Notes: generated by a model from the sequence alone, not told the origin. Counted from the first letter of the stretch, positions 14,602 through 44,511 are shown. The stretch: 64,000 bases of DNA from Dehalococcoidia bacterium (GCA_049671165.1 JBATUN010000021.1:35623-99622); one strand, 5' to 3'. Made by a program: numbers and translations.

Positions 14602-15171
14602 ATGTTGCCTATACCAGCCTCTGAGATAGGTGTCTGGAACGCCTGGATTTTCATGCTTGTTGATGCATTAACTATTCCTGTCTTCCTGCGTATTGTTAAA
14701 AATAGACAGTCACCCTCCCCAGACAAGGCAATGGCTGGCATGTCTAGGGTTGAGAAGATAATCCTCTACGCCTCAAAGGCAATGTTTGTTCCCGCCCTGA
14801 TATACTCTATTTTCCTGCCGTTAAAATTAGGGACGATGTGGTTCTACATAGGTCTGCCAATTACTTTAATAGGGTTAATTGCAGGCGTGATGGTCTTGGT
14901 GAATTGGGCTACTACCCCACCTGATGAGCCGGTTACCAGAGGACTATATCGTTATTCCAGACATCCAATGTATGTCGCCGCTTTTTTGACGTATGTAGGG
15001 TTGGGTATAGCCTGCGCTTCGTGGGTTTTTCTGTTGTTTGCTGTTGTATTTACAGTTGTTTCGTTTGTCTATGCCGATGCTGAAGAACAGCTAACTCTTG
15101 AGATGTACGGTGACCCGTATCGTGAATATATGAATAGGACCCCAAGATATATAGGGATACCGAAATCCTAA
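14602..15171 (+). CDS. isoprenylcysteine carboxyl methyltransferase (ICMT/PEMT) family membrane methyltransferase
   Basis: YRYSRHPMYVAAFL motif; multi-TM. Confidence 0.75.
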   Translation: MLPIPASEIGVWNAWIFMLVDALTIPVFLRIVKNRQSPSPDKAMAGMSRVEKIILYASKAMFVPALIYSIFLPLKLGTMWFYIGLPITLIGLIAGVMVLVNWATTPPDEPVTRGLYRYSRHPMYVAAFLTYVGLGIACASWVFLLFAVVFTVVSFVYADAEEQLTLEMYGDPYREYMNRTPRYIGIPKS

Positions 15172-15182
15172 TAAAGGAGGCC

Positions 15183-15623
15183 GTGAAAATTATGAGAGCT
15201 GATCCCAAGACAGAAGGCGCAGTGGTGAACATAGTCAAACAGGGCTTTGAAGCATTCACAAAAAGAGACTTGGATGCAGTTCTAGCGTTCTTCGCGCCAG
15301 ACCCTGATGTGGTTGTCATTGGTACGGGAGGGGATGAGAAATGCGTCGGGCTTGCCGAGATTAGGAACATATTCGAACGTGCCTTTGCGCAATTCGAGGA
15401 AGCATCTTTTAAGTTCGGTTGGCATTCAGTCTCAGCGGCAGGTTCAGTGGCATTGCTGGCAACTGATGTTACCCTCTACGTGAAGACCAGTGACCGGCAA
15501 ATAAGTGAGCAAGTACGATTAACGGTTGTGCTTGAGCAGCGGGGAGACAGATGGCTCATCATACAGTGGCATGATTCTTTGCCGGCTGCTGGGCAGAAAG
15601 ATGGTCAAGCATTCGCAACCTAG
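15183..15623 (+). CDS. NTF2-like / SnoaL-like (DUF4440) protein
   Basis: 146 aa; FEAFTKRDLDAVLAFFAPD...IGTG pattern typical of SnoaL-like fold. Confidence 0.65.
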   Translation: MKIMRADPKTEGAVVNIVKQGFEAFTKRDLDAVLAFFAPDPDVVVIGTGGDEKCVGLAEIRNIFERAFAQFEEASFKFGWHSVSAAGSVALLATDVTLYVKTSDRQISEQVRLTVVLEQRGDRWLIIQWHDSLPAAGQKDGQAFAT

Positions 15624-15702
15624 TCTTTCTAGAGACAATAGTCCGTTAGATTACAACGCGCGTATTTTTATTCGGAAGATGGAGAAAAGGAAGTAAAACA
15701 TC

Positions 15703-16299
15703 ATGTTGCTTGTACCCGCTTTTCAAATAGGTGTCTGGAACGCCTGGATTTTTGTGATTTGGCCGTGGGTAGATATGCTCGCAGTAAGGCTTGTTGGGTT
15801 AGATGTATATCGGAGAGCGTCAGGGCTACCTTCTGAAATGAAAACTAGCCATCGATACAGGGTAGTCAGCTATGTATCTATGGTAATAGAGACTATGGCT
15901 GTCGCGTATTCCATTTTTTTACCACTCAAATTAGGCACAATATGGTTCTATGCCGGTCTTGCCATTTTCTTAACAGGCCTGGTGGTGCTTACGGCTGCTA
16001 CAGTTAACTTTGCCAGGACACCGATGGATGTACCGATCACCAGGGGGATATACCATTATTCGAGACACCCATTGTATTTAGCGTCGTTGTTGATATATTT
16101 TAGCGTTGGCATAGCTTCAGCCTCGTGGGTCTTTCTGTTGATTTTTGTGGTACAGTCAGTCTCGATAAGAATTGCGGCAGTTGGAGAGGAACGCTTCTGC
16201 CTTGGGAAATATGGCGACGCCTATCGTGAGTATATGAATAAGACGCCGAGATGGATAGGAATACCGAAATCGGGAGGAAGTGATCGGCAGGCAATGTAG
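15703..16299 (+). CDS. ICMT-family membrane methyltransferase, paralog of 14602-15171
   Basis: Shares QIGVWNAWIF...YSRHPLY...RTPRWIGIPKS with its neighbour. Confidence 0.75.
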   Translation: MLLVPAFQIGVWNAWIFVIWPWVDMLAVRLVGLDVYRRASGLPSEMKTSHRYRVVSYVSMVIETMAVAYSIFLPLKLGTIWFYAGLAIFLTGLVVLTAATVNFARTPMDVPITRGIYHYSRHPLYLASLLIYFSVGIASASWVFLLIFVVQSVSIRIAAVGEERFCLGKYGDAYREYMNKTPRWIGIPKSGGSDRQAM

Positions 16300-16300
16300 G

Positions 16301-16337
16301 GCGGAGCCATAGTATAATGAGGCTGTGGCCGAGGAAG
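16301..16337 (+). promoter_or_regulatory. polA promoter region (TATAAT at 16313-16318) running into the polA GTG start; second copy of the 37-bp repeat
   Basis: Direct repeat of 14195-14231. Confidence 0.45.
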
Positions 16338-19054
16338 AAAAACCGCTTTTGCTGCTCTTTGACGGCAATGCCCTGGTGCACCGCGCCTTTCATGCCCTGC
16401 CTCCGCTAACACAGCACAAGACCGGAGAGCTGGTAAATGCCGTCTACGGCTTTGCCAGTACCCTGCTCAAAGTAGTTGCTGATTTCAAGCCCACTCACTG
16501 GGCCATCGCCTTTGACCGTCCCACCCCGACCTTCAGACACGAAATGTTCGAGGAGTATAAGGCCCAGCGTCCGGCCACGCCTGAGGAATTGAAAAGCCAG
16601 ATAAAAAAGGTCCACCAGTTGGTGGAAGCTTTCCATATCCCCGTTTTTGAAATCGACGGCTTCGAGGCCGACGATGTCCTGGGCACGTTGAGCAGGCAGG
16701 CTGACGAGCAGGGCATTGAGACCATCATTGTTACCGGGGACAACGATATGCTGCAGTCTGTCTTGCCTCGAGTCAAAACCCTAGCTCCCAGGCGGACCTT
16801 CACCGACACCATCCTTTATGATGAAGAAACAGTAGAGCAGAAATATGGCATCAAGCCGGAACAACTCGCCGACCTGAAAGCGCTGGCCGGCGACGTCTCG
16901 GATAATATACCCGGTGTGCCGGGCGTCGGTGAGAAGACAGCCACTAAGTTACTTCAGCAGTACGGCAGTCTCCAGGCAATCTACGACCATATCGAAGACA
17001 TAACGCCGGCCAAGTTGCAGAACACGCTGCGCGAATATCGCACTCAGGCTTTCCAGAGCAAAGAGCTGTCCACAATAGTGAAAGATGTTCCTATCAAGCT
17101 GGACTTGAAAACCTGCCAGGTGAGCCACTATGACCGGAACGAGGTAGCCAGGCTTTTCCAGGAGCTTGAGTTCATTAACCTGCTTCCCAGGCTGCCCCAG
17201 ATGAAAGCTGAGGGCTCCCCCTCGGTAGGCGCAGGTCTTGTACCCGCGCACCCATCGGCAGTCAGGAGCCAAATAGTGAACAGCGAAACAGACTTGGAAC
17301 AGCTTGTAGGCGAACTGGAAAAAGCACAGGACCTTGCTATCGAAGTTGAGACTACTGGCGAAAAGGCTATGATGGCAGGTTTGATAGGGATGGCCATATC
17401 GCCAGGCCGAAGGGAGGCGTTCTATATACCTCTGGGCCACCAGGGTTTAAATCAGCCGCCGCAAATGCCGCTAGCCCAGGTCACAGCCCGGCTCAAACCA
17501 GTTTTGGAAAACGCCAGTGTAGGCAAGGTTGCCCATAACGGCAAGCATGTTATAGCGGTACTGGCTGGGTGCAGTGTGAAGCTTGAGAATTTGAATTTCG
17601 ACTCCATGCTCGCCGCTTATCTCCTGGGTGAAAAGAATCTAGGTCTTAAAGCTTTGGCCTTTAATAAACTGGGCGTCGAGCTTACAGCCCCCGCTGAATT
17701 AACCGGCACAGGAAAGAAACAAAGCTCCCTGGCCCTGCTAGACGCGAACCGAGTTGCCGGCCATGCCTGCGCCAGCGTGGATATCCTTTGGAGCCTAAAA
17801 GAGACTTTGGAAGCCGAGCTACGACAGCAAGGCTTGGGGCGGCTTTTCACCGAAGTAGAGATGGCTTTGGTCCCAGTGTTAGTAGCTATGGAAGATAATG
17901 GCATTCTTCTGGATACCGACCTGCTCCGTGAGATGTCCCTGGAGATGGGTAAGGAGCTGCTGAGGCTGGAGAAGGAAATCTATGGCAGCGTCGGGCACCA
18001 GTTTAATATCAACTCGCCCCAGCAATTGGGCAAGGTGCTTTTTGAGGACCTCAGGCTGCCCCAGTCCCGCAGAACGAAGACCGGCTATTCCACCGAAGCC
18101 TCGGTCATGGAAGCGTTGAGAGGCGTTCATCCCGTAATCGAATTCATACTGCAATACCGCCAGCTCAGTAAGCTCAAGTCAACCTATGTTGATGCCCTGC
18201 CCGCGCTTGTTAACCGTAAGACGGGGAGGGTGCACACCACCTTCAACCAGACAGGCACGACTACCGGCCGGCTTTCCTCCAGCGACCCCAACCTCCAGAA
18301 TATACCTATAAGGACTGAGATGGGGAATAAGATAAGAAAGGCCATCATAGCTCCGCCCGGGACATACCTTCTAAGTGCCGACTACTCCCAGATTGACCTC
18401 AGAGTCCTGGCTCACCTCTCTCAAGACTCCGGCCTCATTGCCGCCTTTGCCCGGGACGAGGATATACATGCCACGACCGCCTCTAAGCTCTTCGGCATCC
18501 CCAATGATGCAGTGACTCCCGAGATGCGCCGGAATGCCAAAACGGTCAATTTTGGAGTTATTTATGGTATGAGCGATTACGGATTGGAGCAAGCTACCAA
18601 TCTCAGCCGGGAGGAAGCCGCCCAATTCATCGCCCTGTATTTCGAGAAATATCCCAAGGTGAAGGCATATCTCGAGGCAACCAAGGAACAAGCTAGGAAG
18701 ATGGGCTATGTGCAAACAGTGTTGGGGAGGCGACGGTTCCTGCCCGAAATTAATTCTTCCAACCGGATGGTCAGGGAGGCGGCCGAGCGCATGGCTATAA
18801 ATGCCCCGGTGCAGGGCAGCTCTGCCGATATCATAAAAATCGCCATGATAAATCTGTACCGGGAAATGAAGAAGCGGGATCTGAAGAGCAAGATGTTGTT
18901 ACAAATACACGACGAATTGCTGTTCGAGGTGCCGGAGGGTGAGGTGGAGGAAATAAAGTCCCTGGTCAGCGAGCTTATGCCCCATGCCTTCGAGCTTTGT
19001 GTTCCTGTGAAGATAGACATCAAGCTGGGCAAGAACTGGGCCGAGATGGGATAG
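16325..19054 (+). CDS. polA: DNA polymerase I
   Basis: 909 aa; 5'-3' exonuclease N-domain (LLLFDGNALVHRAFHAL), 3'-5' exo domain, Klenow polymerase motifs (RRxAKxxNFGxxYG, HDEL). Confidence 0.95.
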   Translation: MAEEEKPLLLLFDGNALVHRAFHALPPLTQHKTGELVNAVYGFASTLLKVVADFKPTHWAIAFDRPTPTFRHEMFEEYKAQRPATPEELKSQIKKVHQLVEAFHIPVFEIDGFEADDVLGTLSRQADEQGIETIIVTGDNDMLQSVLPRVKTLAPRRTFTDTILYDEETVEQKYGIKPEQLADLKALAGDVSDNIPGVPGVGEKTATKLLQQYGSLQAIYDHIEDITPAKLQNTLREYRTQAFQSKELSTIVKDVPIKLDLKTCQVSHYDRNEVARLFQELEFINLLPRLPQMKAEGSPSVGAGLVPAHPSAVRSQIVNSETDLEQLVGELEKAQDLAIEVETTGEKAMMAGLIGMAISPGRREAFYIPLGHQGLNQPPQMPLAQVTARLKPVLENASVGKVAHNGKHVIAVLAGCSVKLENLNFDSMLAAYLLGEKNLGLKALAFNKLGVELTAPAELTGTGKKQSSLALLDANRVAGHACASVDILWSLKETLEAELRQQGLGRLFTEVEMALVPVLVAMEDNGILLDTDLLREMSLEMGKELLRLEKEIYGSVGHQFNINSPQQLGKVLFEDLRLPQSRRTKTGYSTEASVMEALRGVHPVIEFILQYRQLSKLKSTYVDALPALVNRKTGRVHTTFNQTGTTTGRLSSSDPNLQNIPIRTEMGNKIRKAIIAPPGTYLLSADYSQIDLRVLAHLSQDSGLIAAFARDEDIHATTASKLFGIPNDAVTPEMRRNAKTVNFGVIYGMSDYGLEQATNLSREEAAQFIALYFEKYPKVKAYLEATKEQARKMGYVQTVLGRRRFLPEINSSNRMVREAAERMAINAPVQGSSADIIKIAMINLYREMKKRDLKSKMLLQIHDELLFEVPEGEVEEIKSLVSELMPHAFELCVPVKIDIKLGKNWAEMG

Positions 19055-19281
19055 GTTAATAAATCCCAAATCCTACTATCCAAATCCTAAGCAAATTCAA
19101 AAGTCAAAGGCCAAAACAAGGCACACCTCGACACAAGCTCGGGTAAAGGGATTGTCATGAATCTTGTGTTATGATGTGGGGGAGGAGAGGTGATCAGGAA
19201 AGGATTGATGGATGAGATTGACGGGAAAAGGCAGCTTGATTTGGAGTCTGTGCTCGGCGAGGCATTGACAGAAAGGACGGC

Positions 19282-19971
19282 ATGATGAGCAAAGCAGTGG
19301 CCATAAATGGTAGCCCTCGAATGGAACGAGGGAATACAGCGATGGTTCTTAATCCTTTCGTTGAGGGCATGATGGATGCCGGGTCCCATGTCGAGCTGTT
19401 CTACGCGAGCCGCCTCAAAGTCAAGCCGTGCGCTTGCGGGACTATGTACTGCTGGACTGAGATGCCCGGAGAATGTTGCATCAAGGATAAGATGGAGCTG
19501 CTCTATCCAAGGCTGAAGGAGTCAGATATTCTTGTCCTGGCCACCCCGGTTTACATCCCCCTGCCTGGCGACATGCAGAACATCATAAACAGGCTTTGTC
19601 CTTTGCTTGATCCGGTGCTCGAGTTTCGCAAGGGACGCACGCGGGCGATATTTCGCAAGGATGGCCGGATCCGAGCAATCGTGCTTGTCTCCACGGGTGG
19701 CTGGTGGGAGAAAGGAAATTTTGGAACGGTAGTGCGTATCGTCAAAGAGCTCGCTGAAGATGCCAGTGTGAACTTCGCCGGGGCGGTGCTCCGACCGCAT
19801 GTCCACGCCATGAGACGGAAAGGAGAATTGACGCAGGACGGCAGAGCTGTTCTGAACGCAGTGCGAAAAGCGGGCTATGAGTTGGTCAAAGACGGTGCGA
19901 TGAAGCGGGAGACCCTCGCGGCGGTAAGCCGCCCGCTTATCTCCCGGGCCGAATTCTGGCGTGAATGGTGA
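19282..19971 (+). CDS. NADPH-dependent FMN reductase-like flavoprotein (iron-sulfur flavoprotein family)
   Basis: Flavodoxin-like AINGSPR...ATPVY pattern with Cys cluster CACGTMYC. Confidence 0.65.
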   Translation: MMSKAVAINGSPRMERGNTAMVLNPFVEGMMDAGSHVELFYASRLKVKPCACGTMYCWTEMPGECCIKDKMELLYPRLKESDILVLATPVYIPLPGDMQNIINRLCPLLDPVLEFRKGRTRAIFRKDGRIRAIVLVSTGGWWEKGNFGTVVRIVKELAEDASVNFAGAVLRPHVHAMRRKGELTQDGRAVLNAVRKAGYELVKDGAMKRETLAAVSRPLISRAEFWREW

Positions 19972-20079
19972 GCATCGTAAGTCTGAGTGTATTGCCGAGG
20001 GAGTTCGATCCTGGCTCCAGACCTGCTCGATGGAATGGCCGATTGAGTTATTGATGCCGTATTGCCACGCTAACCTGAA

Positions 20080-20199
20080 ATGCCGGAGCTACCTGAGGTA
20101 GAAACGATCAGGAACGAGCTTGCGCCCTGGATCGTGGGGCAAAGCTTCGCTCAGGTCACTATCCCCGATTCTGAGCTGGTGTGTGTTGTTTTGCTATGA
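20080..20199 (+). pseudogene. fpg 5' fragment (first ~35 codons, MPELPEVETIRNELAPWIVGQSF...) ending in a premature stop
   Basis: ~85% nt identity to the 5' end of the intact fpg at 21062; 39-aa ORF. Confidence 0.7.
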
Positions 20200-20231
20200 T
20201 GTGAATGAGGCAGGCAAGGAGGAGAGAGCCG

Positions 20232-20867
20232 ATGGATGAAATCAGTGTCAAGAATGTTACACAAGAGAACGTAGATGACCTGTGCCGGGTGTGTGTCACA
20301 TCCTGCGTAAGAGATGACCCTGACTGGATAAGAGGCGCGGCAGACAAAAAGAAATGGGCTGCTGAGATGTTACCCAAATGGGGTTCATTCGCCAAGGTAG
20401 CCTACGAGAATCGCAATCCAGCGGGGATGATTCAGTACCGGCCGTCTCCCGAGGAACGAGTTGTTCGTATTGACTGCATTTATGTCCCCGTTCAGAGTTG
20501 CTGGGGGAAAGGGATTGCAAGCCGGCTCTTGGGCAGCCTGATGGAAGATGTGCAAAAACCAATGAGCTGGTTCGATAATAGGCGACCATTGGCACTCGTG
20601 ACCACGACGTTTCCCGGCGGAGCCCCCGAACAATATACAGCCCGGGAGTTCTTCACCAGAAAAGGCTTCAAGCAGATAGGGGAAGACCCTGATTATCTGT
20701 ATTACCCTCTGCAGCCAGGTTTTGTCTACAAGCCTGCTGCCAAGAAAGAAGTAAGGTATGTTCCCCAGGATGAAGATAGGGATAAGGTTGTGATTGTTTG
20801 CGGCCCTGATTACTGCCCTGCCACCTACCCTTATTTTCTCAAGAGAATGGAGAGGTACGTCAGATAA
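20232..20867 (+). CDS. GNAT-family N-acetyltransferase-like protein
   Basis: AGGAGG ribosome-binding site before ATG 20232; IDCIYVPVQSCWGKGIASRLL resembles GNAT motif A. Confidence 0.55.
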   Translation: MDEISVKNVTQENVDDLCRVCVTSCVRDDPDWIRGAADKKKWAAEMLPKWGSFAKVAYENRNPAGMIQYRPSPEERVVRIDCIYVPVQSCWGKGIASRLLGSLMEDVQKPMSWFDNRRPLALVTTTFPGGAPEQYTAREFFTRKGFKQIGEDPDYLYYPLQPGFVYKPAAKKEVRYVPQDEDRDKVVIVCGPDYCPATYPYFLKRMERYVR

Positions 20868-21061
20868 ATATACCCGGACGTTCCTATCAGGTGGATAGAC
20901 TCGTCTGAAGAACCTGAAGAGCCAAGAAAGCGCAATATTGGTGTCGGGACCTGTATCGTGAATGCTAAGCTCATCAAATCCTATGTCCTTGACAAAGATA
21001 ACTTCCAGAAGGAAGTAAAGGCAGCGCTCGAGTAGAAGGGGCTCGACAGGGGGACCGAGAG

Positions 21062-21889
21062 ATGCCGGAACTGCCTGAGGTAGAGACCATCAAGAACGAG
21101 CTTGCGCCCTGGGTCGTGGGGCAAAGCTTCACCAAAGTCACTATCTCTGATGCCAAGCTGGTGTGCGGTGGTTCTGCTCAGGAAGTCCGTCGCGGATTAA
21201 TCCGGCAGAAGATAGAAAGCCTGGGACGCCGGGGAAAGTATCTCATCTTTCACCTATCGAATGGCAGGTCACTGGTTATACATCTCAGGATGACCGGCAG
21301 CTTGCTGTTAAATCCCAAAGAGGTTGACCGCTATGCCCGGGCAGTTTTTCGCCTTTCCAACGGGCACCGCCTTGTTTTCAGTGACCGGCGCCGCCTGGGG
21401 GTGCTGTGGCTGGCAGACGATGCCGGTACTGTCGTTTGTAAGCTGGGTCCCGAGCCGCTGGATAAAGCCTTCACGCCGAACGTTCTGAAGCAAAGGCTAA
21501 GCTGGCATCACATCCCGATAAAAGCCGCGCTTCTCGACCAGCGTATCGTCGCTGGAATCGGCAATATGTATGCCGATGAAGCCCTCTTTGCCGCTCGTAT
21601 TCAGCCACTGAGGAAAGCAGACGACTTGTCGCCCAAAGAAGTACGAACTTTACATAATTGCATCCGCAGGATTCTTCGGGCAGCCATCGGCAGCAAAGGC
21701 GCCAGCGTGGATACCTACGTCCGCCCCGAAGGCGAGCTGGGCACAGCCCATTTCGATTTTAAGGTTGCTCATAAGGGAGGCGAACCCTGCCCCGTTTGCG
21801 GCAGCACCATCGAGCGGGTCGTGGTGCAAAACCGCGGCACTTACTTCTGCCCCCGATGCCAACGTCTCAAACCCGGGCACTCAAAATAA
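21062..21889 (+). CDS. fpg: formamidopyrimidine-DNA glycosylase (Fpg/MutM family)
   Basis: N-terminal MPELPEVE (catalytic Pro2/Glu3), H2TH, C-terminal CxxC...CxxC zinc finger; 275 aa. Confidence 0.9.
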   Translation: MPELPEVETIKNELAPWVVGQSFTKVTISDAKLVCGGSAQEVRRGLIRQKIESLGRRGKYLIFHLSNGRSLVIHLRMTGSLLLNPKEVDRYARAVFRLSNGHRLVFSDRRRLGVLWLADDAGTVVCKLGPEPLDKAFTPNVLKQRLSWHHIPIKAALLDQRIVAGIGNMYADEALFAARIQPLRKADDLSPKEVRTLHNCIRRILRAAIGSKGASVDTYVRPEGELGTAHFDFKVAHKGGEPCPVCGSTIERVVVQNRGTYFCPRCQRLKPGHSK

Positions 21890-22033
21890 GAGCTGACGGC
21901 GGCGGGATTTGCGCCAGCGACTAAGGGCTTCCCAACGCCTTGGCTCATCCTGCCGTATCTTTACCCTATGGGTAGCCTTGCCGATCCCCCAGCAAACCAC
22001 CCCGCTATCCTCAAGCTTCACTTAGCTAGCAAG

Positions 22034-22042
22034 TGGTATAAT
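22034..22042 (+). promoter_or_regulatory. extended -10 promoter element TGGTATAAT for the radical-SAM operon
   Basis: Perfect TGnTATAAT ~65 nt upstream of ATG 22108, with a GAGAGGAAA ribosome-binding site in between. Confidence 0.35.
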
Positions 22043-22107
22043 TTAGGAATAAGATTTAATCTACAAATTCATAAGATAGTTTGGACTTACGAAAAGAGAG
22101 GAAATAG

Positions 22108-23403
22108 ATGAGTGAACAGGGAGTCAAGCATATAACCGTGCCAGGACTCAGGCTACATCTCAGAAGGGATGATAACCACAGTATTCTCTGGATAAACAGC
22201 CAAAAAGTATTAATACTTAATACCACAGCGGCTGATTATGTCGAAGCATATATTGATGCTATGCGTTCTACCTCACAATTTGACCAATCGGTAGTCAAGT
22301 CTAAGATTGTAAAAGCAATAGAAGAGAAATACCCTACAGTCACTAAGGAGAGAATACTCAGCGACTTTGATACTTTGTATGCTCAAATACTTGCGATAGC
22401 TGAAAACAAATGTCCGGTTTATGACCTGGGAATTGGACAGCAAGTTATGGATATAAACAAACTAACGGCACCACCAAGAGTAGACCTGGCACTAACTTAT
22501 AGATGCAATAATAAATGTTCCTACTGCTATACAGGTGGCTCGCGTAAGACTAAGGAATTAGACACAACGGATTGGACACAAATACTTGATAAGCTTTGGA
22601 AAGCCGGGGTACCTCAAGTAGTATTTACCGGTGGAGAGCCTACGTTAAGAGACGACTTGGTCCCACTGGTGAGTCATGCTGAAGAGTTCGTGACTGGCTT
22701 GGTCACAAATGGACGTTTGCTACATAAGCTATCTAAGGGCTTAAAGGAGGTAAGCTTAGATTACGTTCAAGTTAGTATTGAATCCAATTCCCAGTCTATA
22801 CACGATGAGATGACGGGTGTGTCCAACTCCTGGGCGGAGACCGTAAATGGGATCAGGGCAGCAGAAAAAGAAGGTTCAAATGTCTACACCAATACTACCC
22901 TTACCAAGCGTAATGCGGACCATTTTACCTCTACTATGGAATTTCTAGCCTCCCTGGGGGTCAAAGGTATAGCTTGTAACAGTCTAATATGTAGTGGCTT
23001 AGGGTGTAAGGCAATTGAAAAGGATGGGCTAAGCGAGGAAACGTTAAAGGGCATTTTACAGGATGCCTGTGACAAAGCCAGAGAGCTAAAGATAGAGTTT
23101 AATTGGTATACCCCTACTTGTTATAAGAAGTTGAACCCCATAGATTTGGGCTTGGGAATAAAAAGCTGCTCGGCTGCTCAGTATAATGTAACCATTGAAC
23201 CAGATGGGACTGTTATTCCATGTCAGTCACTCTTCAACCACAAAATGGGGCATATTATGAAGGATAGCTGGGAAAAGATTTGGGGTAATGAGTTTGCGAA
23301 AAAGATTAGAAATCACTACTTCATCAGTGAGGAATGTAAGTCCTGTAGTTTTCTAGAGACTTGCGGAGGTAGCTGTCCTTTGGCGACCGGAGAATTGAAA
23401 TGA
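22108..23403 (+). CDS. radical SAM / SPASM-domain maturase with N-terminal PqqD-like RiPP recognition element
   Basis: N-terminal ~100 aa PGLRLHLRRDDNHSILWINSQKVLILNTTAADYVEAYIDAM (PqqD-like); CNNKCSYC (Cx3Cx2C); C-terminal Cys clusters CKSCSFLETCGGSCP (SPASM). Confidence 0.85.
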   Translation: MSEQGVKHITVPGLRLHLRRDDNHSILWINSQKVLILNTTAADYVEAYIDAMRSTSQFDQSVVKSKIVKAIEEKYPTVTKERILSDFDTLYAQILAIAENKCPVYDLGIGQQVMDINKLTAPPRVDLALTYRCNNKCSYCYTGGSRKTKELDTTDWTQILDKLWKAGVPQVVFTGGEPTLRDDLVPLVSHAEEFVTGLVTNGRLLHKLSKGLKEVSLDYVQVSIESNSQSIHDEMTGVSNSWAETVNGIRAAEKEGSNVYTNTTLTKRNADHFTSTMEFLASLGVKGIACNSLICSGLGCKAIEKDGLSEETLKGILQDACDKARELKIEFNWYTPTCYKKLNPIDLGLGIKSCSAAQYNVTIEPDGTVIPCQSLFNHKMGHIMKDSWEKIWGNEFAKKIRNHYFISEECKSCSFLETCGGSCPLATGELK

Positions 23404-24584
23404 GAAGAGTCCTACTGATAGCTGCCGTATTTCTTATTGCTTTAGCTTTGCTGCCTGTTCCGATATACGCTGATACCGGTACCTATGACATACTAGATTA
23501 CGTAGTAGAACTAACTCCCTTGGATGATGGTACTGTACATATGACGTACTACCAGGAATGGCTATGTACCGGGGGTCATATACCCTGGGTGACAGTCGGC
23601 ACTGCAAATAGTCATTTTGACATCATAAGTACTGGAGGCAATGTTGAATCTGCCAGAGACAACAGTAGCGGTGGTTGGCAGGGAGTCTACCTGACACTGG
23701 ATAAAGACTATACTTCCGGTGAGAAGTTTACTATATCTTTTTCAATAGTCCAGCGAGATCTCCTGGAAAGGTTAACCAATGAAGGAAAGTGGAGAATAGA
23801 TTTTACCCCCGGGTGGTATGATAATTGCGTTACAGATAACCTTACTATCACACTGAACTCGCCAGTGTCAGTTAGCACATATAGTTTTGCACCGCAACCT
23901 GCTCAAGTAATAGATAATATCGTCACCTGGCAAACCAGTTTAGCTAGAGGAGATAGGTTTAACGTTAGGATGGGATCCTATGATGGAAGTTTTCTTCAAC
24001 CTACAGAACCTACTGGTCCCAGCTTTAATTGGGTATGGGTATTAATACCCGTTTTTGTAGTTGGATTCTTACTCGTTATGTTTGTTAGAAGCAGGAAAAG
24101 AGAAGAATCTACTACTTCGGAAGAGTATATCTTTGATGAGAAGGGTAATCTAGATGATAGGTTAAAAGAGGCAAAGGAGAAGTGGGATAAAGATAAGAAA
24201 GATACTAAGTTCTCTGACACAGAACAAGCTAGATTTGATGAGTTTGTGGCTGAGAAAAGGCTGGAACCTGATATTAACGGAAACTACTATTACAATGGTA
24301 ACTTCATCAACCCCTGGATATTGTTCGGGGCTTTAAATAGTCTTTCTTACCGTAAACCTAACATGAATGTATTTACAACGAGGGGTGCAGGGGCCAGAGG
24401 CGGTTCATCTTGCATTGCTGTTTCCTGCGCTTGTGTAGCGTGTGCTTGTGCCTGTGCTTGCGCATGCGCAGGAGGTGGTGCTGCTGGTTGTGCAAAGAAA
24501 CTGGATTATTACGATGGTATAGAATCCGGCGAGAAGGGCTGCACTATGGGGAATTCCAATCTAGCAAGCCGTTCTGGGGACTAG
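23400..24584 (+). CDS. single-pass membrane protein with predicted cytoplasmic C-terminal (Cys-Ala)n tail
   Basis: Signal peptide, ~190-aa ectodomain, TM helix (WVWVLIPVFVVGFLLVMFV + RSRKREE), tail ...SSCIAVSCACVACACACACACAGGGAAGCAKK; start overlaps the radical-SAM stop (ATGA). Confidence 0.7.
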   Translation: MRRVLLIAAVFLIALALLPVPIYADTGTYDILDYVVELTPLDDGTVHMTYYQEWLCTGGHIPWVTVGTANSHFDIISTGGNVESARDNSSGGWQGVYLTLDKDYTSGEKFTISFSIVQRDLLERLTNEGKWRIDFTPGWYDNCVTDNLTITLNSPVSVSTYSFAPQPAQVIDNIVTWQTSLARGDRFNVRMGSYDGSFLQPTEPTGPSFNWVWVLIPVFVVGFLLVMFVRSRKREESTTSEEYIFDEKGNLDDRLKEAKEKWDKDKKDTKFSDTEQARFDEFVAEKRLEPDINGNYYYNGNFINPWILFGALNSLSYRKPNMNVFTTRGAGARGGSSCIAVSCACVACACACACACAGGGAAGCAKKLDYYDGIESGEKGCTMGNSNLASRSGD

Positions 24585-24587
24585 AAT

Positions 24588-24751
24588 TCGAGGGCGAATT
24601 GAGCACAGCCCATTTCGATTTTAAGGTTGCTCATAGGGGAGGCGAACCTTGCCCCGTTTGTGGCGGCACCATCGAGCGGGTCCCGGTGCAGAACCGCGGC
24701 ACCTACTTTTGCGCCAGATGCCAGCCTTTGGGTCGCGGGCCTCTGATATAA
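24588..24751 (+). pseudogene. fpg 3' fragment (zinc-finger end, ...EGELSTAHFDFKVAHRGGEPCPVCGGTIERV...)
   Basis: High nt identity to 21725-21889 of intact fpg; no 5' part attached. Confidence 0.7.
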
Positions 24752-24755
24752 AAGC

Positions 24756-24811
24756 TGGCAATGGCTGGATTTGAACCAGCGATTAAGGGATTCCTAAGCC
24801 CCTGGTTCATC
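24756..24811 (-). repeat. tRNA-like 3' half (T-arm + acceptor), ~24/27 identical to the tRNA-Met 3' end at 44440
   Basis: tggcaatggctggatttgaaccagcga versus tggcagcgggtggatttgaaccaccga; a degenerate homolog follows the intact fpg at ~21899. Confidence 0.35.
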
Positions 24812-24938
24812 TACGAGCACTAGTGTTCTGAAGCTCCTTCTCCAAGGACTTCCATCTGCCCAGGTCTTTTATAGTTGTGAAAAGTTCGTTAGCAAAAATG
24901 TTAGCAGAATACATAACCTTTGTTTTAGGGCTTGTGCG

Positions 24939-25427
24939 ATGTATAATTGGTGGAAAGTTGCAGAAGTCGAAGGAATCATGCCTCGACGAGAGTACGTGCC
25001 CAGTCCAATAGATACGCTTAGTCCAGAAGCAAGAAGCAAACGAATGAGCCTTGTTAAGGGGCGTGATACTAAGCCTGAGCGACATGTTCGTGAAATATTA
25101 AAGAAACTGGGCTATCGCTATCGATTACAATATTCAAGGTTACCTGGCAAACCTGATTTTGCTTTGCCTGGAAAGCGTAAGGCCATTTGGGTTCATGGGT
25201 GTTTCTGGCACCGCCATGAAAATTGCTCATTGGCTAGGTTACCTAAGGGGGGCCAGGATTTCTGGATACCGAAATTGGAGGGGAATAGGAAGCGTGATTT
25301 GGAGCATCAGGATAAAGTAAGACAAATGGGGTGGCAAATTTTGGTGATATGGGAATGCGAATTGAGCAATCAACCTTCAGTAGAATCTAAGATAAAGCAG
25401 TTCTTGGAGAATCATGAGATCAATTGA
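24939..25427 (+). CDS. vsr: very-short-patch repair endonuclease
   Basis: ARSKRMSLVKGRDTKPERHVR...WVHGCFWHRHENC; start may be an internal Met (MPRRE). Confidence 0.8.
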   Translation: MYNWWKVAEVEGIMPRREYVPSPIDTLSPEARSKRMSLVKGRDTKPERHVREILKKLGYRYRLQYSRLPGKPDFALPGKRKAIWVHGCFWHRHENCSLARLPKGGQDFWIPKLEGNRKRDLEHQDKVRQMGWQILVIWECELSNQPSVESKIKQFLENHEIN

Positions 25428-26466
25428 GTTGTTCACCGGAGCCGGTGGTTTGGCGTTGGGAATTCATTTAGCTGGATTCGAGCATCAATTACTAGTCGAA
25501 GCGGACGACGATGCCTGTGAGACGTTAGTTCATAATAGTAAAAACGAAACGGTTTCAGGAATATCGAGATGGCCAATAGTTCGCGATCTAGTTGAATTGG
25601 TTGATCTAAGCAGTTATCAGAAAATTGATTTGCTGGCCGCAGGCATTCCGTGCCAACCGTTCAGTAACGGAGGGAAGCGCGGTGGCATTGAGGACGATAG
25701 GAATATGTTTCCTGTATTCGCTAGAGTCCTTGCCGCCTTAAAGCCGCAGGCTTTTCTGCTGGAGAATGTGAACGGACTAATAAACGGCAAACTTGCAAGC
25801 CACATGGAATATATTATTTTGCAGCTACGGCATCCTTGGAATTTGGCAAGGAATGGCCAAACGTGGAAAGATCATTTAGAAGAATTGCGATACATAACTG
25901 AAAAAGATATAAGGAAAGACACGGACTATAAAGTGTATTTCCAAGTTTTGGATGCTGCCAATTATGGAATTCCGCAGATTAGGAAGCGCGTCTTCGTTGT
26001 TGGATTCCGAAGGGATTTAGAGACCAACTGGAATTTTCCGACAGCCACTCACTCAAAGGAAGCACTTTTGACCAACAATAAAAAGGCGTGGCTAACCGTC
26101 CGTGACGCCATCAGAGGTCTACCGAAGAGTGGCACCAAAGCCGCCGCCGGTATTCAACACGTTATGGTCCCTGGAGCTAGGAGCTACAAGGGACACACTG
26201 GCAGTGTCTTAGACTGGCCAGCCAAGTCATTGAAGGCTGGGAATCATGGAGTTGGGGGTGGAGAGAACACGTTACGTTATCAGAATGGTCGTGTCAGGTA
26301 TTTCACGGTAAGAGAGTGTGCGCGCTTGCAGACCTTTCCGGACTCTTGGGTATTCAAAGGACCTTGGTCCAGCGTGACAAGACAAATTGGTAACGCCGTG
26401 CCGGTAAAGATGGCTACCGTAGTGGCGAAGTCAATAAGAGAACTGTTGGGGAATTCGGTAGAATAA
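25414..26466 (+). CDS. dcm: DNA (cytosine-5)-methyltransferase
   Basis: Motif I FTGAGG, PCQPFS catalytic motif, ENV, QIGNAV; overlaps the vsr stop. Confidence 0.9.
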   Translation: MRSIELFTGAGGLALGIHLAGFEHQLLVEADDDACETLVHNSKNETVSGISRWPIVRDLVELVDLSSYQKIDLLAAGIPCQPFSNGGKRGGIEDDRNMFPVFARVLAALKPQAFLLENVNGLINGKLASHMEYIILQLRHPWNLARNGQTWKDHLEELRYITEKDIRKDTDYKVYFQVLDAANYGIPQIRKRVFVVGFRRDLETNWNFPTATHSKEALLTNNKKAWLTVRDAIRGLPKSGTKAAAGIQHVMVPGARSYKGHTGSVLDWPAKSLKAGNHGVGGGENTLRYQNGRVRYFTVRECARLQTFPDSWVFKGPWSSVTRQIGNAVPVKMATVVAKSIRELLGNSVE

Positions 26467-26478
26467 GTATAGGGATTA

Positions 26479-27609
26479 CTAGGACGACTTATTGTAACTT
26501 GGTAAGCTAACTTTAAAAACTGATTGAAAGTATTCACTCATATAGTCGTATTGACGCTTTATTGCTCCAGCATCGTTCGGAGACTGTTTCTCGCGGTCAA
26601 AGTACACCAGAATCTGTTCAAGTTGGGACAATGGTTCTTTTGTAGTCCCTGCTGCGAGTCTCTGCGATTTTTTACGAGCAGCGGTTAATTCATCGTTGAA
26701 CTGTTCAAGCGTCTGCTTGGTGAAAGGCACTGGAATACTAGATTCTTGACAAATTCGGAAGATGTGGAAGTATAGAGTCATTCTTCCCTGACTGGCTAGT
26801 AACGGGTCTTTGTGATCAAAGAATTCATTCATTTTGTCCATGATTTTGGTTGTATTGGATTGCATAGATTGTAAATGCTCGGGGGATGCCTCGGGTTGTT
26901 TCATGTCGCGATACTCGCGGAACTTAGTCACGAATTCATCTAGCATCTTTTTCTTGGTGGATTCGATGGAATTAACGTAGGTTAGATACAAGAACTTAGC
27001 CGCCAAGTCAAAGTGTTGCCTGCGTTTGTTAGTTATGCGGACTGATTGCTGGAAGAAGGCGTGGAATCCTATTTTTTGAATGACGAAGGGTAGGGGCCCG
27101 CCGAGAGCGTTTCGTCTTTCACCAGCACTAAGTGATACTTGTATATTGAGGCGTGAGAAAAGGTCATCAATGAAGTCTGTGTCATCTGTTTGAACGACTG
27201 TGACTGGTAAGTCGAAGCCATCAAACCGAGCACGCAAGCGAGGGAACTTAGACATTAGCTCATCATATTTAGCCCCTCCAGCTTCTATGGACTCATCGTC
27301 ATAGAAGATGAAGTTTTTGGGAAGAGATAGTTCATTTTCCATGAATCTCCACAAGGAATATAGACGTTGTTTGCCGTCAATAACGGCATACCTGTATTTG
27401 CCAGTCTGGTTAGGCGTTGGCGGAATCTGATAAAAATATAGCTTAGGGACATCAAAGCCGTTAAGTATGGAATCAATGAAACATTGCTGTTGCCCTTCAT
27501 CCCAGATCGAAAAACGTTGGTAGGGGGGGTCAAGGTCAATCTGGTCTTTCCATTCATACAATTGTAATATATTGTTTGCCCTCAACGGGTACATTTTGAA
27601 GCGTGGCAT
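26479..27609 (-). CDS. DUF262 (ParB-like nuclease superfamily) protein, candidate restriction/defense nuclease
   Basis: DPPYQRFSIW...IDGKQRL motifs at the N-terminus. Confidence 0.7.
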   Translation of the reverse strand: MPRFKMYPLRANNILQLYEWKDQIDLDPPYQRFSIWDEGQQQCFIDSILNGFDVPKLYFYQIPPTPNQTGKYRYAVIDGKQRLYSLWRFMENELSLPKNFIFYDDESIEAGGAKYDELMSKFPRLRARFDGFDLPVTVVQTDDTDFIDDLFSRLNIQVSLSAGERRNALGGPLPFVIQKIGFHAFFQQSVRITNKRRQHFDLAAKFLYLTYVNSIESTKKKMLDEFVTKFREYRDMKQPEASPEHLQSMQSNTTKIMDKMNEFFDHKDPLLASQGRMTLYFHIFRICQESSIPVPFTKQTLEQFNDELTAARKKSQRLAAGTTKEPLSQLEQILVYFDREKQSPNDAGAIKRQYDYMSEYFQSVFKVSLPSYNKSS

Positions 27610-28499
27610 TAGTCACCTCCCAGAAGATCTTTTGCTTCTCTGGCGACATTGTCAAGTTCTGGGAAAAGTATTCTTCTATTAACTCCGATTCTTCCAAGCT
27701 CCTGATATATCGGTTCTTTGTGTTCTTGAGGTATCTTATATCTCCAGATATGCGTGCCATCCTTGAGCGCCTGTTCGACCGGAGTTTTATTATTGACATG
27801 ATGTATAGTGAAAACGCTCATTTGCACCTGCATACGGCGGTTAGTGCGTGGCGCTATACCCGCAGCGGGCAATCGGCCGGGAGGCAAATCCTCACTGATT
27901 GTTGTTGGCAGATAAAGGTCAATTGTCTCACCTGCACCGCGTGAGACTTCTTCTGGATTGCCAGAAAGCATCGGAAGCGTGTAATCGTCATTTGGCCATT
28001 TAAGTGAAACAACATTAAGACGATTCGGTAGCAAACACCATAAGACACCGTCATCGGCATATGGATTTTTAGGGTCTTCTCTTGGATAGACGGCGAAGTA
28101 TAAGGCTACCAAAGGATTTTCGGTCCAATCAAGCAAGCGTGAAGGCGCCTTATGATGACGCATGAGAAACATCCACTCCCATATGCTGTTGGGAATTTGG
28201 GCAAGGATTTCGTGTGCATTCTGTTTAAACAGGTTCATGAGATAAATTTCGTCCTTGATATCAACCTTGCATTCCTTCCTATAGAAGGTGGGTAATAATT
28301 TGCGGCTGATTTTTCTCAAGCCCCTATACCAAATCGGAGGTTTAGAGTAGTTACCTTTAAGAGGGGTCTCACCTGCAGGATGTTGCCTAGAAGTACGTTT
28401 TGGCTCAAGCGCCTCGCGTAATCTCTCCTCATCTTTCTGTAATGCAGCTAATAAGTCGGCGACGCTCGTTATTTTATCTTCATCAAAAAGGTAGGCCAT
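27609..28499 (-). CDS. FRG-domain protein
   Basis: IWYRGL...LLPTFYR and ...HHKAPSRLLDWTENPLVALYFAV match the FRG-domain core. Confidence 0.6.
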   Translation of the reverse strand: MAYLFDEDKITSVADLLAALQKDEERLREALEPKRTSRQHPAGETPLKGNYSKPPIWYRGLRKISRKLLPTFYRKECKVDIKDEIYLMNLFKQNAHEILAQIPNSIWEWMFLMRHHKAPSRLLDWTENPLVALYFAVYPREDPKNPYADDGVLWCLLPNRLNVVSLKWPNDDYTLPMLSGNPEEVSRGAGETIDLYLPTTISEDLPPGRLPAAGIAPRTNRRMQVQMSVFTIHHVNNKTPVEQALKDGTHIWRYKIPQEHKEPIYQELGRIGVNRRILFPELDNVAREAKDLLGGD

Positions 28500-28873: not shown

Positions 28874-29210
28874 TTGACAGAAAGCCTACCTCAAATTATT
28901 ATCTTCTGTTTCTAATAGCTTCCATTACCGAAAGAAGAACTCCGACACCTATGAGAGAGTAACCTATCGCACGAGAATCACCGAAGATAATCCCCAGAAC
29001 CACTAAGGACATACCAAGTATAGCGAGGTTTGATGGTTGTTGATATTGCCTTCCCCTGGCTATAAGCAGAAGAACCACAATAACAACCAGGGCAATGATT
29101 GAAATGGTTATCCACACGGGTTCCATGAATACCTCCTTTTAGAAGTACTGGCTACTTTCAAAAATTATAGCACTGAGGGCAAAGAGAAGATGTATTATTG
29201 CCAGGGAAAA
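28874..29210. repeat. ~335-bp direct repeat R1 (carries the small membrane-protein gene)
   Basis: ~90% identical to 31166-31500. Confidence 0.7.
28899..29126 (-). CDS. small two-TM membrane protein (75 aa)
   Basis: MEPVWITISIIALVVIVVLLLIARG...; paralog at 31188. Confidence 0.55.
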   Translation of the reverse strand: MEPVWITISIIALVVIVVLLLIARGRQYQQPSNLAILGMSLVVLGIIFGDSRAIGYSLIGVGVLLSVMEAIRNRR

Positions 29211-29354: not shown

Positions 29355-30929
29355 TCACGGAGTGCTGGCTACAAACTTCTTTTTATCCTTTTTACAGATA
29401 ATTTGTATCGTATGCCGACCCGACATAACCGCCGTAGGCATTCCGCCGCCCGGATTGACCCACTGCCCGGCCATGTAGAAATTGTCAAGTCCCGGCAGAG
29501 TCTTGCTCATCTGCATCATGAGAGTCTTGGGGGTAATCATCCATCCTTCATAGCTGCCCTTCCAGTTACCGGTATAACGTACCCATGTCATCGGAGTAGC
29601 TACGTCACGCATCTCTACCTGGGCTGCCAGTCCCGGAAAGCGCTTATCGAGAAGGGCAACCACCGTATCTGCTATCTGCTCTTTCTCCGCTTTATATCGT
29701 TCGGGCTCTTTGTATAACCTCTCCCAGTAATCGTAATCCGTATTGAACTGGACCTTGACCACGGTCTTGCCCTCCGGCGCCAGGGTGGGGTCGAAATTGT
29801 AAATGAGTACGCCGAGTGTTTTCTGTGCTTTGCCGGCAATAGTTACGGGTTTCTCCAGAGGGAAAGTAAGACCGCCTACCGAGGGCGGCACATCATCGAA
29901 TTTACGAGCCACTCCCAGGCCGATATATACCAGCGGTGGAAACAATTGGAGATTGTCATAATAGCCGCGTATCTTGTCATCGATGTATTTACCATCCAGC
30001 ATATCGAAAATGGTGGTATGACCATCGGCGGCAGAGATAACGATGTCGCCCCGGTGTTCCGTACCATCCGCCAGCCTTGTGCCTACAGCTTTATCGTTTT
30101 CTACCAGTACTTTTTCTACCCTTGCCTTGAGATGCAGTTTGCCGCCAAGGTCAAGGTAGCGTCGCTGAATATAGCTGACAAGGGCCAGGGCGCCGCCGAT
30201 GACATAGCCGGCTGCCTGCTGGTGTTGCCAGGCAAGCATCATCGGCATGGTTATCGCGGGCATGTCGGCGAAGTCATCCTCGGGATCTACGTTGACAACT
30301 TTACGAAGTAAGGGGTTTTTAAAGCGCTGAGCGAAATCGGCCGTGCGAATTTCAGCCCACTTTCGTATGAACCTTAAATAAGGCAGCATTTTGACCGTCT
30401 TGATGCCATCGATTAGGCTATAAAGCTCCTGGGGCTTATCTACAGGCATGTCGGATCGAGCGAGATAGCGTATTGCTTTGGTGAACTCGCGGATGACCGC
30501 TTCATCCTCGGGGGCAAATTCCATCATCTGCTGTTCGAGGCGGTTGACATCGGAATACATGTTAAAAACCTTACCACTTTCATCTTCAATGATAGTGAAC
30601 TGGTCAAGATTGATAACTTTCCACTGCTGCGCCGCCCCAAGCTCTTCCCACAACTTGTAAAAGCTGGTTCCCGGTTTGGTGCCCACCAGCCAGTTCATTG
30701 CGCCATCAATGGTGTAGCCCTTGCGTTGCCAGCCGGTGCATACCCCGCCAGCCTTATCATGCATCTCAAAAACAGACGTACGGTAACCGTTCATCCGACC
30801 GTAGCACCCCGCCGCCAGACCGGTGAGTCCACCCCCGATGATGATTATTGACTTTTCCACATTTCTTCCTTTTCGGCTTAGATTATTAACAGGATAGTGC
30901 ATGCTATATTGATGTCTGCTAATTGTCAA
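29355..30929 (-). CDS. FAD/NAD(P)-binding oxidoreductase, phytoene-desaturase (CrtI) family
   Basis: IIIIGGGLTGLAAGCYG Rossmann motif near the N-terminus; ~524 aa. Confidence 0.8.
   Translation of the reverse strand: MTISRHQYSMHYPVNNLSRKGRNVEKSIIIIGGGLTGLAAGCYGRMNGYRTSVFEMHDKAGGVCTGWQRKGYTIDGAMNWLVGTKPGTSFYKLWEELGAAQQWKVINLDQFTIIEDESGKVFNMYSDVNRLEQQMMEFAPEDEAVIREFTKAIRYLARSDMPVDKPQELYSLIDGIKTVKMLPYLRFIRKWAEIRTADFAQRFKNPLLRKVVNVDPEDDFADMPAITMPMMLAWQHQQAAGYVIGGALALVSYIQRRYLDLGGKLHLKARVEKVLVENDKAVGTRLADGTEHRGDIVISAADGHTTIFDMLDGKYIDDKIRGYYDNLQLFPPLVYIGLGVARKFDDVPPSVGGLTFPLEKPVTIAGKAQKTLGVLIYNFDPTLAPEGKTVVKVQFNTDYDYWERLYKEPERYKAEKEQIADTVVALLDKRFPGLAAQVEMRDVATPMTWVRYTGNWKGSYEGWMITPKTLMMQMSKTLPGLDNFYMAGQWVNPGGGMPTAVMSGRHTIQIICKKDKKKFVASTP

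Positions 30930-44439: not shown

Positions 44440-44511
<72 letters not shown>

Follow-up and report, generated by a model that had tools for sequence, protein, structure and literature searches.

A protein-coding gene flanked on both sides by partial copies of its own ends raises the question of how those copies came to be there. The case considered here is fpg, the gene for formamidopyrimidine-DNA glycosylase, in a 64,000-nt stretch of DNA from a Dehalococcoidia bacterium (GCA_049671165.1 JBATUN010000021.1:35623-99622), which we call the window throughout and whose positions are counted from its first nucleotide. The original prediction, drawn from this sequence by itself, was that fpg hosts two stacked insertions and serves as their attachment site, each element having carried a replacement gene end that displaced the native one. 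Our comparison with related loci points to a different history. We consider it likely that fpg stands at the proximal edge of an array of horizontally acquired cassettes anchored on a tRNA-Met(CAT) gene, and that the 5' fragment derives from a separate duplication.

Two Partial Copies of fpg

The repeats were tested by repeat search, pairwise alignment, blastn, and tblastn, and domains were assigned with Pfam and NCBIfam. The comparison set began with an Fpg scan of species-representative genomes, which gave 80 loci at ≤87% identity, all from metagenome-assembled genomes (MAGs) of uncultured Dehalococcoidia or Chloroflexota; later searches added loci L201-L205 and 31 metagenome contigs (L206-L236). 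Related loci are cited below by L number. The features of the window on which the question turns are the following:

16325-19054 (+): polA, DNA polymerase I
20077-20195 (+): fpg 5' fragment (nt -2 to 117), 39 codons and then a stop
21062-21889 (+): intact fpg, with all three Fpg domains and scores above the NCBIfam equivalog cut-offs
24589-24751 (+): fpg 3' piece (nt 666-828, comprising the stop and the 53 codons before it), beginning 4 nt past the stop of a membrane-protein gene and carrying a "type II" tail, typical of most relatives

Self-comparison of the locus, done by repeat search and alignment, confirms both predicted direct repeats, with edges that differ from those first proposed by only 1-4 nt. 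The 5' repeat (20077-20195 against 21059-21178) is 83% identical over 120 nt (blastn E = 3e-30) and has the predicted premature stop. The 3' repeat (24589-24811 against 21727-21949, fpg nt 666-888) is 81% identical over 224 nt (E = 1e-55) and comprises fpg nt 666-828 plus 60 nt past the stop; it codes for the final 53 residues of Fpg, zinc finger included. The edges of both repeats are sharp, and their similarity is far above chance. The predicted cargo is likewise in place, as a weak GNAT match upstream of fpg and, downstream of it, a radical SAM/SPASM enzyme followed by a membrane protein (coordinates below).

A tRNA-Met Anchor Beyond fpg

The 3' flank of fpg reads GCTGGATTTGAACCAGC, which, on the other strand, is the T arm of a tRNA. 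At this flank, no tRNA or RNA family is reported by ARAGORN or Rfam (E ≤ 1) in scans of 19-33 kb; the identity of the flank came from comparison with L026 and from a custom nhmmer profile built from five intact tRNA-Met genes, which we also used, together with class-specific queries for degenerate copies, to find further fragments. When the tRNA-Met of L026 and the only tRNA of the window (44440-44511, minus strand) are used for comparison, the alignment of both flank copies covers ~38 nt at the 3' end of tRNA-Met(CAT) and breaks off at the anticodon loop. The tRNA-Met sequences of the window are:

21893-21930 (-): tRNA-Met(CAT) 3'-half fragment A (acceptor 3' strand and T arm, to the anticodon loop), 4 nt past the fpg stop; nhmmer profile positions 4-38
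24755-24811 (-): tRNA-Met 3'-half fragment B, together with ~21 nt from the start of a shared segment, x, at the right edge of the 3' repeat; nhmmer profile positions 2-54, E = 3e-5
32815-32845 (-): degenerate fragment before a beta-CASP gene; at an orthologous position in L007, L202, L203, and L025
34374-34420 (-): degenerate fragment behind the beta-CASP gene, a weak nhmmer match; orthologous in L007, L009, and L202
38307-38339 (-): 3' fragment before a MerR gene, nhmmer E = 2e-4; orthologous fragments in L203 and L020
38848-38889 (-): 3' fragment, nhmmer E = 1.5e-3
42396-42420 (-): short 3' fragment, nhmmer E = 0.1; its downstream sequence class is like that at L203 19828
44440-44511 (-): intact tRNA-Met(CAT), the distal anchor of the array, found by ARAGORN and aligned with the tRNA-Met genes of L026 and L019

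All of the fragments lie on the strand of the intact tRNA-Met, which is 22.5 kb from fpg. Their ends fall at profile positions ~36-45 (anticodon loop or stem) or ~26-28 (T-arm end), and the anticodon loop and the T-arm end are the break positions used by tRNA-targeting integrases.

Related loci contain both the same arrangement and states that lack it. A search of relatives for empty sites had been proposed, and empty or near-empty states do occur: in three distant relatives (L026, L041, and L045) an intact tRNA-Met lies 2-80 nt past the fpg stop (2 nt in L026), with a right-hand flank too diverged for a match with the window, and in L019 a conserved flavodoxin gene directly follows fpg. Fragment arrays, on the other hand, are present in L001-L012, L020, L022, L202, and L203 and in most of the 31 metagenome contigs. 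The order fpg, tRNA fragment, x segment, cargo is found in more than 30 related Dehalococcoidia contigs, and the arrays of L022 and L203 extend from fpg all the way to an intact tRNA-Met. At many boundaries the tRNA fragment stands without any fpg sequence, and the cargo at this site differs in every relative. Because of the tRNA identity of the flank, the same-strand fragments, and the equivalent arrays and ancestral states in relatives, we read 21890-44511 as a tRNA-Met-anchored array; because its pattern recurs in >30 contigs, we read the 3' repeat as a composite att-type repeat made of fpg tail, tRNA half, and the start of x. In this locus, fpg is a mere neighbor of a 22.5-kb tRNA-Met cassette array that reaches far past the region first considered. 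The attachment-site interpretation of the 3' repeat therefore survives in part: the repeat is of att type and bounds foreign cargo (39-44% G+C in the radical SAM cassette, against 54-58% in polA and fpg), but the anchor is the tRNA-Met 3' half and not fpg.

In at least 11 of the 25 closest loci (L001, L002, L004-L009, L012, L014, and L020), a tRNA fragment stands behind a displaced 3' piece of fpg. A short sequence found directly past the fpg stop is likewise repeated many times in these loci. Every such 3' piece ends in the tRNA-Met 3' half; the repeats differ in how much of fpg they include, and some include none.

Two further features complete the left boundary of the radical SAM cassette:

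21931-22025 (+): shared x segment, found before many different cargos; the dyad of its start with the tRNA fragment has the consensus ACCAAGGGCTT-CCT-AAGCCCTTGGT
22034-22042 (+): TGGTATAAT, an extended -10-like motif and putative promoter, kept upstream of the radical SAM gene in all cassette copies

Common to many boundaries and placed directly behind the tRNA fragment, the x segment is ~60-95 nt long. Its start and the end of the tRNA fragment form an 11-bp dyad that is 82% paired across 16 junctions; these junctions show no covariation, so the dyad is best regarded as conserved sequence rather than demonstrated structure, and its interpretation as a structured attC-like site is unsupported. 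Derivation of x from fpg was considered and rejected, since no alignment exceeds z = 3. A consensus promoter scan, whose matches were not above shuffle expectation, missed TGGTATAAT because there is no -35 hexamer at 16-18 nt.

The Radical SAM/SPASM Cassette

The cargo bracketed by the 3' repeat forms a cassette of 2.86 kb with two genes:

22108-23403 (+): radical SAM/SPASM enzyme; homologs 86-99% identical in L008, L014, L202, L203, L206, L208, L217, L221, and L223
23400-24584 (+): memCys, a Cys-rich membrane protein of 394 aa with the invariant C-terminal motif SCACVACACACACACAGGGAAGC

This cassette is also found in L008, L014, L201-L206, L208, L217, L221, and L223, at differing ranks in the array. 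It lies directly behind fpg in the window, L202, L208, L217, L221, and L226 and behind other cassettes in L008, L014, and L203/L204. The left end is conserved as tRNA fragment, x, and then TGGTATAAT. The right junction, which consists of the memCys stop, 4 nt, and fpg from nt ~666, is identical in the window, L014, and L201, and an fpg piece also stands behind the cassette in L206, L208, L217, and L223; counted together, at least seven contigs other than the window have the cassette with this right junction. Cassette and host similarities are incongruent: L208 and L203 are 94% identical in the 5' parts of fpg and only 88% in the radical SAM gene, while L208 and L217 are 99.5% identical in the radical SAM gene and 95% in fpg. 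This incongruence indicates that the cassette has been exchanged horizontally. A comparison of the linkage of the right-hand fpg piece to the radical SAM gene gave values that all fall within 84-96%, a range too narrow to discriminate.

For the membrane protein, neither Pfam nor NCBIfam gives a family match. More than 900 homologs were found, and the C-terminal motif SCACV[AS]CACACACACAGGGAAGC[AS][KR]K is almost invariant even in homologs that are 38-44% identical overall. The radical SAM/SPASM enzyme and the membrane protein may be a maturase-substrate pair of unassigned function.

The polA-fpg Spacer and the 5' Fragment

Most relatives have only 4-10 nt between the polA stop and the fpg start, the ancestral or empty upstream state; elsewhere the spacer holds a conserved module (module M), an FMN reductase-like gene, a GNAT gene, or toxin-antitoxin pairs. 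In the window it contains, besides the fpg 5' fragment:

19164-19230 (+): what is left of the beginning of a GNAT gene (promoter, ribosome-binding site, and ~8 initial codons), placed ahead of the FMN reductase gene; it forms the left end, and the fpg 5' fragment the right end, of duplication copy 1
19282-19971 (+): NADPH-dependent FMN reductase-like gene (Pfam PF03358), an alternative spacer cassette, placed alike in L012, L017, and L025
20186-20192 (no strand): duplication (or circle-closure) junction, joining fpg nt ~115 to the GNAT upstream region through TGTGT microhomology of ≤6 nt
20205-20867 (+): GNAT-like acetyltransferase gene (Pfam PF00583, E = 3e-6), cargo of copy 2

Two haplotypes known from relatives are joined here end to end. 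Positions 19259-20162 are collinear with L012 4795-5681 and L017 443-1313, where the FMN reductase gene leads into an intact fpg, and positions 20215-21300 (GNAT, spacer, and fpg) are collinear with L014 509-1594. The remnant at 19164-19230 aligns over 55 nt at 69% with 20189-20242 (z = 4.8, reached by 0 of 1000 shuffles) and also with the beginning of the GNAT gene in L014 and L020; as an independent case, a GNAT piece precedes the FMN reductase gene of L025. On the strength of this collinearity and of the shared left ends, we take 19164-20191 and 20189-21173 to be two abutting copies, with differing alleles, of one segment that runs from the GNAT promoter to fpg nt ~115. The true start of the GNAT gene is likely the ATG at 20232, which stands behind a GGAGG.

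No fpg 5' fragment occurs in the other loci (>110 related loci); it is found in the window only. L208 and L217 have the 3' structure, and in both polA abuts fpg, without GNAT gene or 5' fragment, which indicates that the 5' and 3' events are independent. Judged from these alignments, the 5' structure is a separate small duplication unrelated to the 3' repeat. The 5' repeat therefore does not hold up as an integrative footprint, being the junction of a ~1-kb tandem duplication, and of the two stacked insertions what remains is a pair of repeat structures that both exist and that arose in independent events of different kinds (L208 and L217).

As for its likely origin, the structure is what one would expect if a circularized homologous fragment from a related strain had inserted by a single crossover, or if there had been an unequal illegitimate exchange between haplotypes. 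Heteroallelic tandem duplications (merodiploids) are known to arise from single-crossover integration of circularized or mispaired homologous DNA. The 5' structure of the window resembles them in its two abutting ~1-kb copies, different internal alleles, and microhomology junction; the shared ends of its copies are only 69-83% identical, so either the duplication is old or the donor was divergent.

Two observations concern the surroundings of this spacer. Module M, ~430 nt long, is a conserved feature of several relatives (L001 9485-9914, L011 1942-2372, L012 4387-4791, L014 1-440, and L020 9187-9592), in which it separates polA from fpg or precedes the FMN reductase or GNAT gene; it is absent from the window. 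Just upstream of polA, window positions 14602-16299 hold three adjacent open reading frames (ORFs), of which the two scanned are paralogous membrane methyltransferases of the PEMT/ICMT family; similar tandem copies occur in L012.

Searches for a Recombinase

The absence of an integrase, as originally predicted, is confirmed for the window by Pfam and by XerD and Hin searches. The recombinase probes were XerD and Hin sequences, validated against the PDB (1A0P at 2e-190; Gin and gamma-delta resolvase); the XerD probe picks up IntI4 in the PDB control, and positive-control matches were also obtained in viral loci. Pfam scans and phmmer searches with XerD and Hin found no recombinase among the array ORFs of the window. 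Pfam likewise found none among 30 cargo representatives from relatives, and none stands among the top 25 families listed in a Pfam summary of 127 proteins. Regular expressions for box II and for serine recombinases gave two spurious antisense matches only, and a scan of viral contigs with a T-arm 21-mer returned only generic phage tRNAs, none linked to fpg.

The sole integrase trace lies in a relative. L022 13952-14212 (-) encodes an 87-aa C-terminal tyrosine-integrase remnant (PF00589, 30.4 bits), which is located inside the array in the orientation of the tRNA and whose database homologs are all fragments of 63-74 aa. Within the window, an IS200/IS605-like Y1 transposase gene (45351-45908) lies just past the intact tRNA-Met and an AAA_33 kinase gene. 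It is missing at that position in L019, L025, and L203, which identifies it as a window-specific insertion, and on this ground it was rejected as the recombinase of the array.

Proposed Mechanism

We propose that fpg and tRNA-Met initially adjoined each other as convergent genes. The tRNA would then have received one insertion after another, each with its break at the anticodon loop or the T-arm end and each leaving behind, at the edge of a cassette, a tRNA 3'-half fragment oriented like the rest; the intact tRNA would in this way have been pushed 22.5 kb away. One such boundary would be the 3' repeat, composed of 163 nt of fpg tail, ~38 nt of the tRNA-Met 3' half, and ~21 nt of x. The radical SAM cassette would move between genomes and between ranks of the array. 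The inserting enzyme would be a tyrosine integrase that has since been lost or acts in trans, and RecA-dependent recombination between repeats of 40-330 nt would also shuffle cassettes. The crossover may have been in the tRNA fragment or the x dyad, which we prefer, or within fpg at the left edge of the piece; the fpg pieces themselves may stem from templated repair or illegitimate circularization.

Several observations weigh against this mechanism. In the ~110 related loci, XerD and Hin phmmer searches of ORFs ≥80 aa match nothing except the L022 remnant, so the integrase step is one that we infer rather than show. Canonical tRNA-targeting elements need not carry 160-290 nt of gene past the tRNA 3' end, which puts the fpg pieces outside the standard model. 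The left edges of these pieces cluster at fpg nt ~585, ~664, ~714, and ~770, each cluster with different left-hand cargos, and this clustering may be a sign that the crossover fell within fpg. Simple accretion would put the newest insert next to the intact tRNA, yet the array varies most beside fpg and not just beside the intact tRNA. L019 has no detectable tRNA fragments around its conserved cassettes. For the 5' duplication, the left-end homology is modest (55 nt, 69%).

Instead of being the remains of decayed integrative elements, the arrays might also be a working cassette platform without a cis integrase, in which a recombinase acting in trans would capture and exchange small self-promoted cassettes at the fpg-proximal site. 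Its module would consist of fpg tail, tRNA-Met 3' half, and dyad-forming x, making it integron-like but built on a tRNA fragment. Taken together, these propositions are unlikely, and we offer them as speculation.

Alternative Explanations

A rather improbable alternative is that no site-specific recombinase was ever involved. RecA would have integrated circles by a single crossover at fpg-tail/tRNA-fragment/x homology, the circles having been looped out between direct repeats or closed illegitimately, and the tRNA fragments would persist as portable homology. The lack of recombinase genes in ~110 arrays and repeats as long as 330 nt are in keeping with this account, and it explains the 5' structure in the same window best. 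It also accommodates the memCys/fpg nt 666 junction, which is of closure type, fixed, and inherited. When displaced pieces are compared with intact fpg genes, the gene of the same genome ranks 1st-3rd in L004, L005, L007, L008, and L202 and 12th-21st in the window, L006, L012, L014, and L020; the several pieces closest to their own genome's fpg (L004, L005, L007, and L008) suit the RecA account. It gives no reason why a single tRNA should supply all the boundaries, always as a 3' half with the same orientation and with the break at the anticodon loop or the edge of the T arm, nor why L022 retains an integrase remnant. In addition, many boundary fragments are only 25-45 nt long and 80-90% identical, making them poor RecA substrates.

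We regard as still more doubtful the original idea that fpg itself is the attachment site and that two elements, at its 5' and 3' ends, each brought a replacement end and displaced the native one. In its favor are the duplication of fpg at both ends with cargo between, the clustering of the displaced 3' pieces' left edges at a few fixed fpg positions despite differing cargos, and the tail types: the type II tail usual in the clade is found on the displaced piece of the window, L006, and L020, as expected of a native end under this model, and the intact gene has a rarer type. However, the tail to the left of the radical SAM cassette is type I in the window and type II in L202, so it is not linked to the cassette. 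Intact fpg, moreover, is 81-92% identical in nucleotides to its relatives, uniformly along its length (segment-wise comparison with 25 relatives), and this comparison detects no similarity break at nt 117 or nt 666 and no chimerism that would show a gene end supplied by an element, a point on which the tail types give conflicting hints. All of the 3' pieces end in the tRNA-Met 3' half, many boundaries hold a tRNA fragment without fpg, no integrase is present, and the 5' fragment, seen in the window only, is collinear with the FMN reductase-fpg haplotype and in tandem with the GNAT-fpg haplotype.

An assembly artifact, in which strain variants that occur together were joined into a chimera, is very improbable. 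The lineage is known from MAGs only, many related contigs break at this point, and the 5' junction is unique to the window; yet identity between the repeat copies is no more than 81-83%, a microhomology of ≤6 nt at the 5' junction is far below an assembler k-mer, and the 3' architecture, with the exact memCys/fpg junction, is reproduced in independent assemblies from many samples. Equally remote is a one-step replacement of nt 116-665 of a resident fpg by a 4.4-kb donor block (GNAT, fpg, tRNA fragment, radical SAM, and membrane protein), which would fit the nearly equal divergence of the two fragments from the intact gene (82-83% and 81-82% identity) and the matching L014 order, GNAT-fpg...radical SAM-memCys-fpg piece, but which L208 and L217, with the 3' junction beside a polA that abuts fpg, essentially refute, the same junction being present in L206, L223, and L201 and the region upstream of the L014 GNAT gene being module M (as in L001 and L011) without an fpg 5' fragment.

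Other Cargo of the Array

The next cassette or cassettes begin just right of the 3' repeat:

24939-28499 (no single strand): Vsr, C5 DNA methyltransferase, NsnA-like DUF262 protein, and PDC-S15/FRG protein

By its gene content, this is a defense-type cluster. The defense-type cargo of relatives includes OLD nuclease, PycTM, HEPN, PLD, and HicAB/ParE/PIN, with accessory metabolic genes mixed in.

Farther along the window array, two paralogous genes for membrane proteins of 75-76 aa, at 28899-29126 (-) and 31188-31418 (-), bracket an FAD amine-oxidase gene at 29355-30929 (-). The amine oxidase is 97% identical in protein sequence to L009 4474-6048, against 76-88% for neighboring conserved genes, which suggests that the unit is a further cassette, exchanged not long ago and with a duplicated gene at its borders. 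L009 also contains, at 2827-2902, a tRNA-Gly(ACC) with its own TATAAT motif inside the array, directly behind a cut-off tRNA-Met fragment; an integration module with a tRNA-Gly-like gene has been reported for Dehalococcoides ssrA islands (PMC3146451).

The related short MAG contigs (L002, L013, L016, L018, L021, and others) often start or stop at fpg or its tRNA fragment, and MAG SMAG_U14132 has two short contigs that each carry fpg. It seems from this pattern that the locus, rich in repeats and variable between strains, is a regular breaking point of assemblies. One locus, assembled twice, is represented by L203 4106-4932 and L204 4105-4932; its fpg is whole in L204 and falls into two ORFs in L203, where the split is probably a sequencing frameshift and not a pseudogene.

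Significance and Relation to Known Systems

The locus provides a concrete insertion hotspot, polA-fpg-[cassettes]-tRNA-Met, in uncultured, streamlined Dehalococcoidia, where defense genes (Vsr/Dcm, OLD, PycTM, HEPN, PLD, and toxin-antitoxin pairs) and accessory metabolic genes turn over; since MAG contigs often break there, its content is under-sampled. It also carries a caution: where a protein gene seems to have copies of its own ends on either side, the pattern can result incidentally from an adjoining tRNA attachment site. Should cassettes indeed move without a cis integrase, the arrays would offer a tractable case of trans-mobilized cassettes in an uncultured lineage.

Phage 21 and e14 integrate in icd and carry a replacement gene end. 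Islands specific for dusA also integrate into a protein gene (PMC4482086). As with icd and dusA elements, a direct repeat of part of a protein gene flanks the insert in the window, and the gene stays intact. Those elements have their crossover in the protein gene and an adjacent integrase, whereas the constant part of the window repeat is a tRNA half, the locus has no integrase, and intact fpg shows no detected chimerism. Integrons differ from the arrays in other respects: in the latter no IntI or other tyrosine recombinase was found (the L022 remnant aside), their cassettes are of mixed orientation, and these cassettes have TATAAT-like motifs of their own.

In the tycheposon islands of Prochlorococcus, elements are separated by partial tRNA copies only, and incoming elements push older ones inward (Hackl et al., bioRxiv 10.1101/2020.12.28.424599); these islands are also strewn with degenerate remnants and additional partial tRNAs, and their cargo serves defense and niche adaptation (bioRxiv 10.1101/2020.12.28.424599). 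The window hotspot is likewise tRNA-anchored, with partial tRNAs between units and degenerate remnants. Tycheposons possess their own tyrosine recombinase and replication module; the window array has neither, a Pfam search having found no primase/helicase replication module among its ORFs or the tested cargo representatives, and the L022 remnant is the only trace of an integrase. Neither the tRNA used as anchor nor the lineage is that of the tycheposon islands.

The closest known system is that of the ssrA islands of Dehalococcoides mccartyi. These tandem islands at the tmRNA gene are bounded by 20-bp direct repeats of the ssrA 3' end and use the serine recombinase DsiB (PMC3146451), and some lack an integration module, which has been read as their being cis-mobilizable or fixed by accretion (McMurdie et al. 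2011, PMC3146451). The window comes from the same bacterial class, and its array has the same features: tandem islands downstream of a small stable-RNA gene, bounded by repeats of its 3' end, with the insertion point in a tRNA-like loop and units without an integration module. It differs in that its target is tRNA-Met, its repeat comprises ~40 nt of tRNA and up to 290 nt of fpg rather than 20 nt, no DsiB-type serine recombinase or six-gene integration module was found in any of the arrays, and its units are mostly of 1-3 genes. Among the marks of a tRNA-anchored island, the integrase is missing here; the intact tRNA, oriented 3' repeats, canonical breakpoints, empty sites, and foreign, variable cargo are all present. 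The locus is thus a real hotspot that recurs throughout the lineage, and a case of tRNA-anchored island accretion: a rather common type of genomic island, met here in a lineage and at a site that are new for it.

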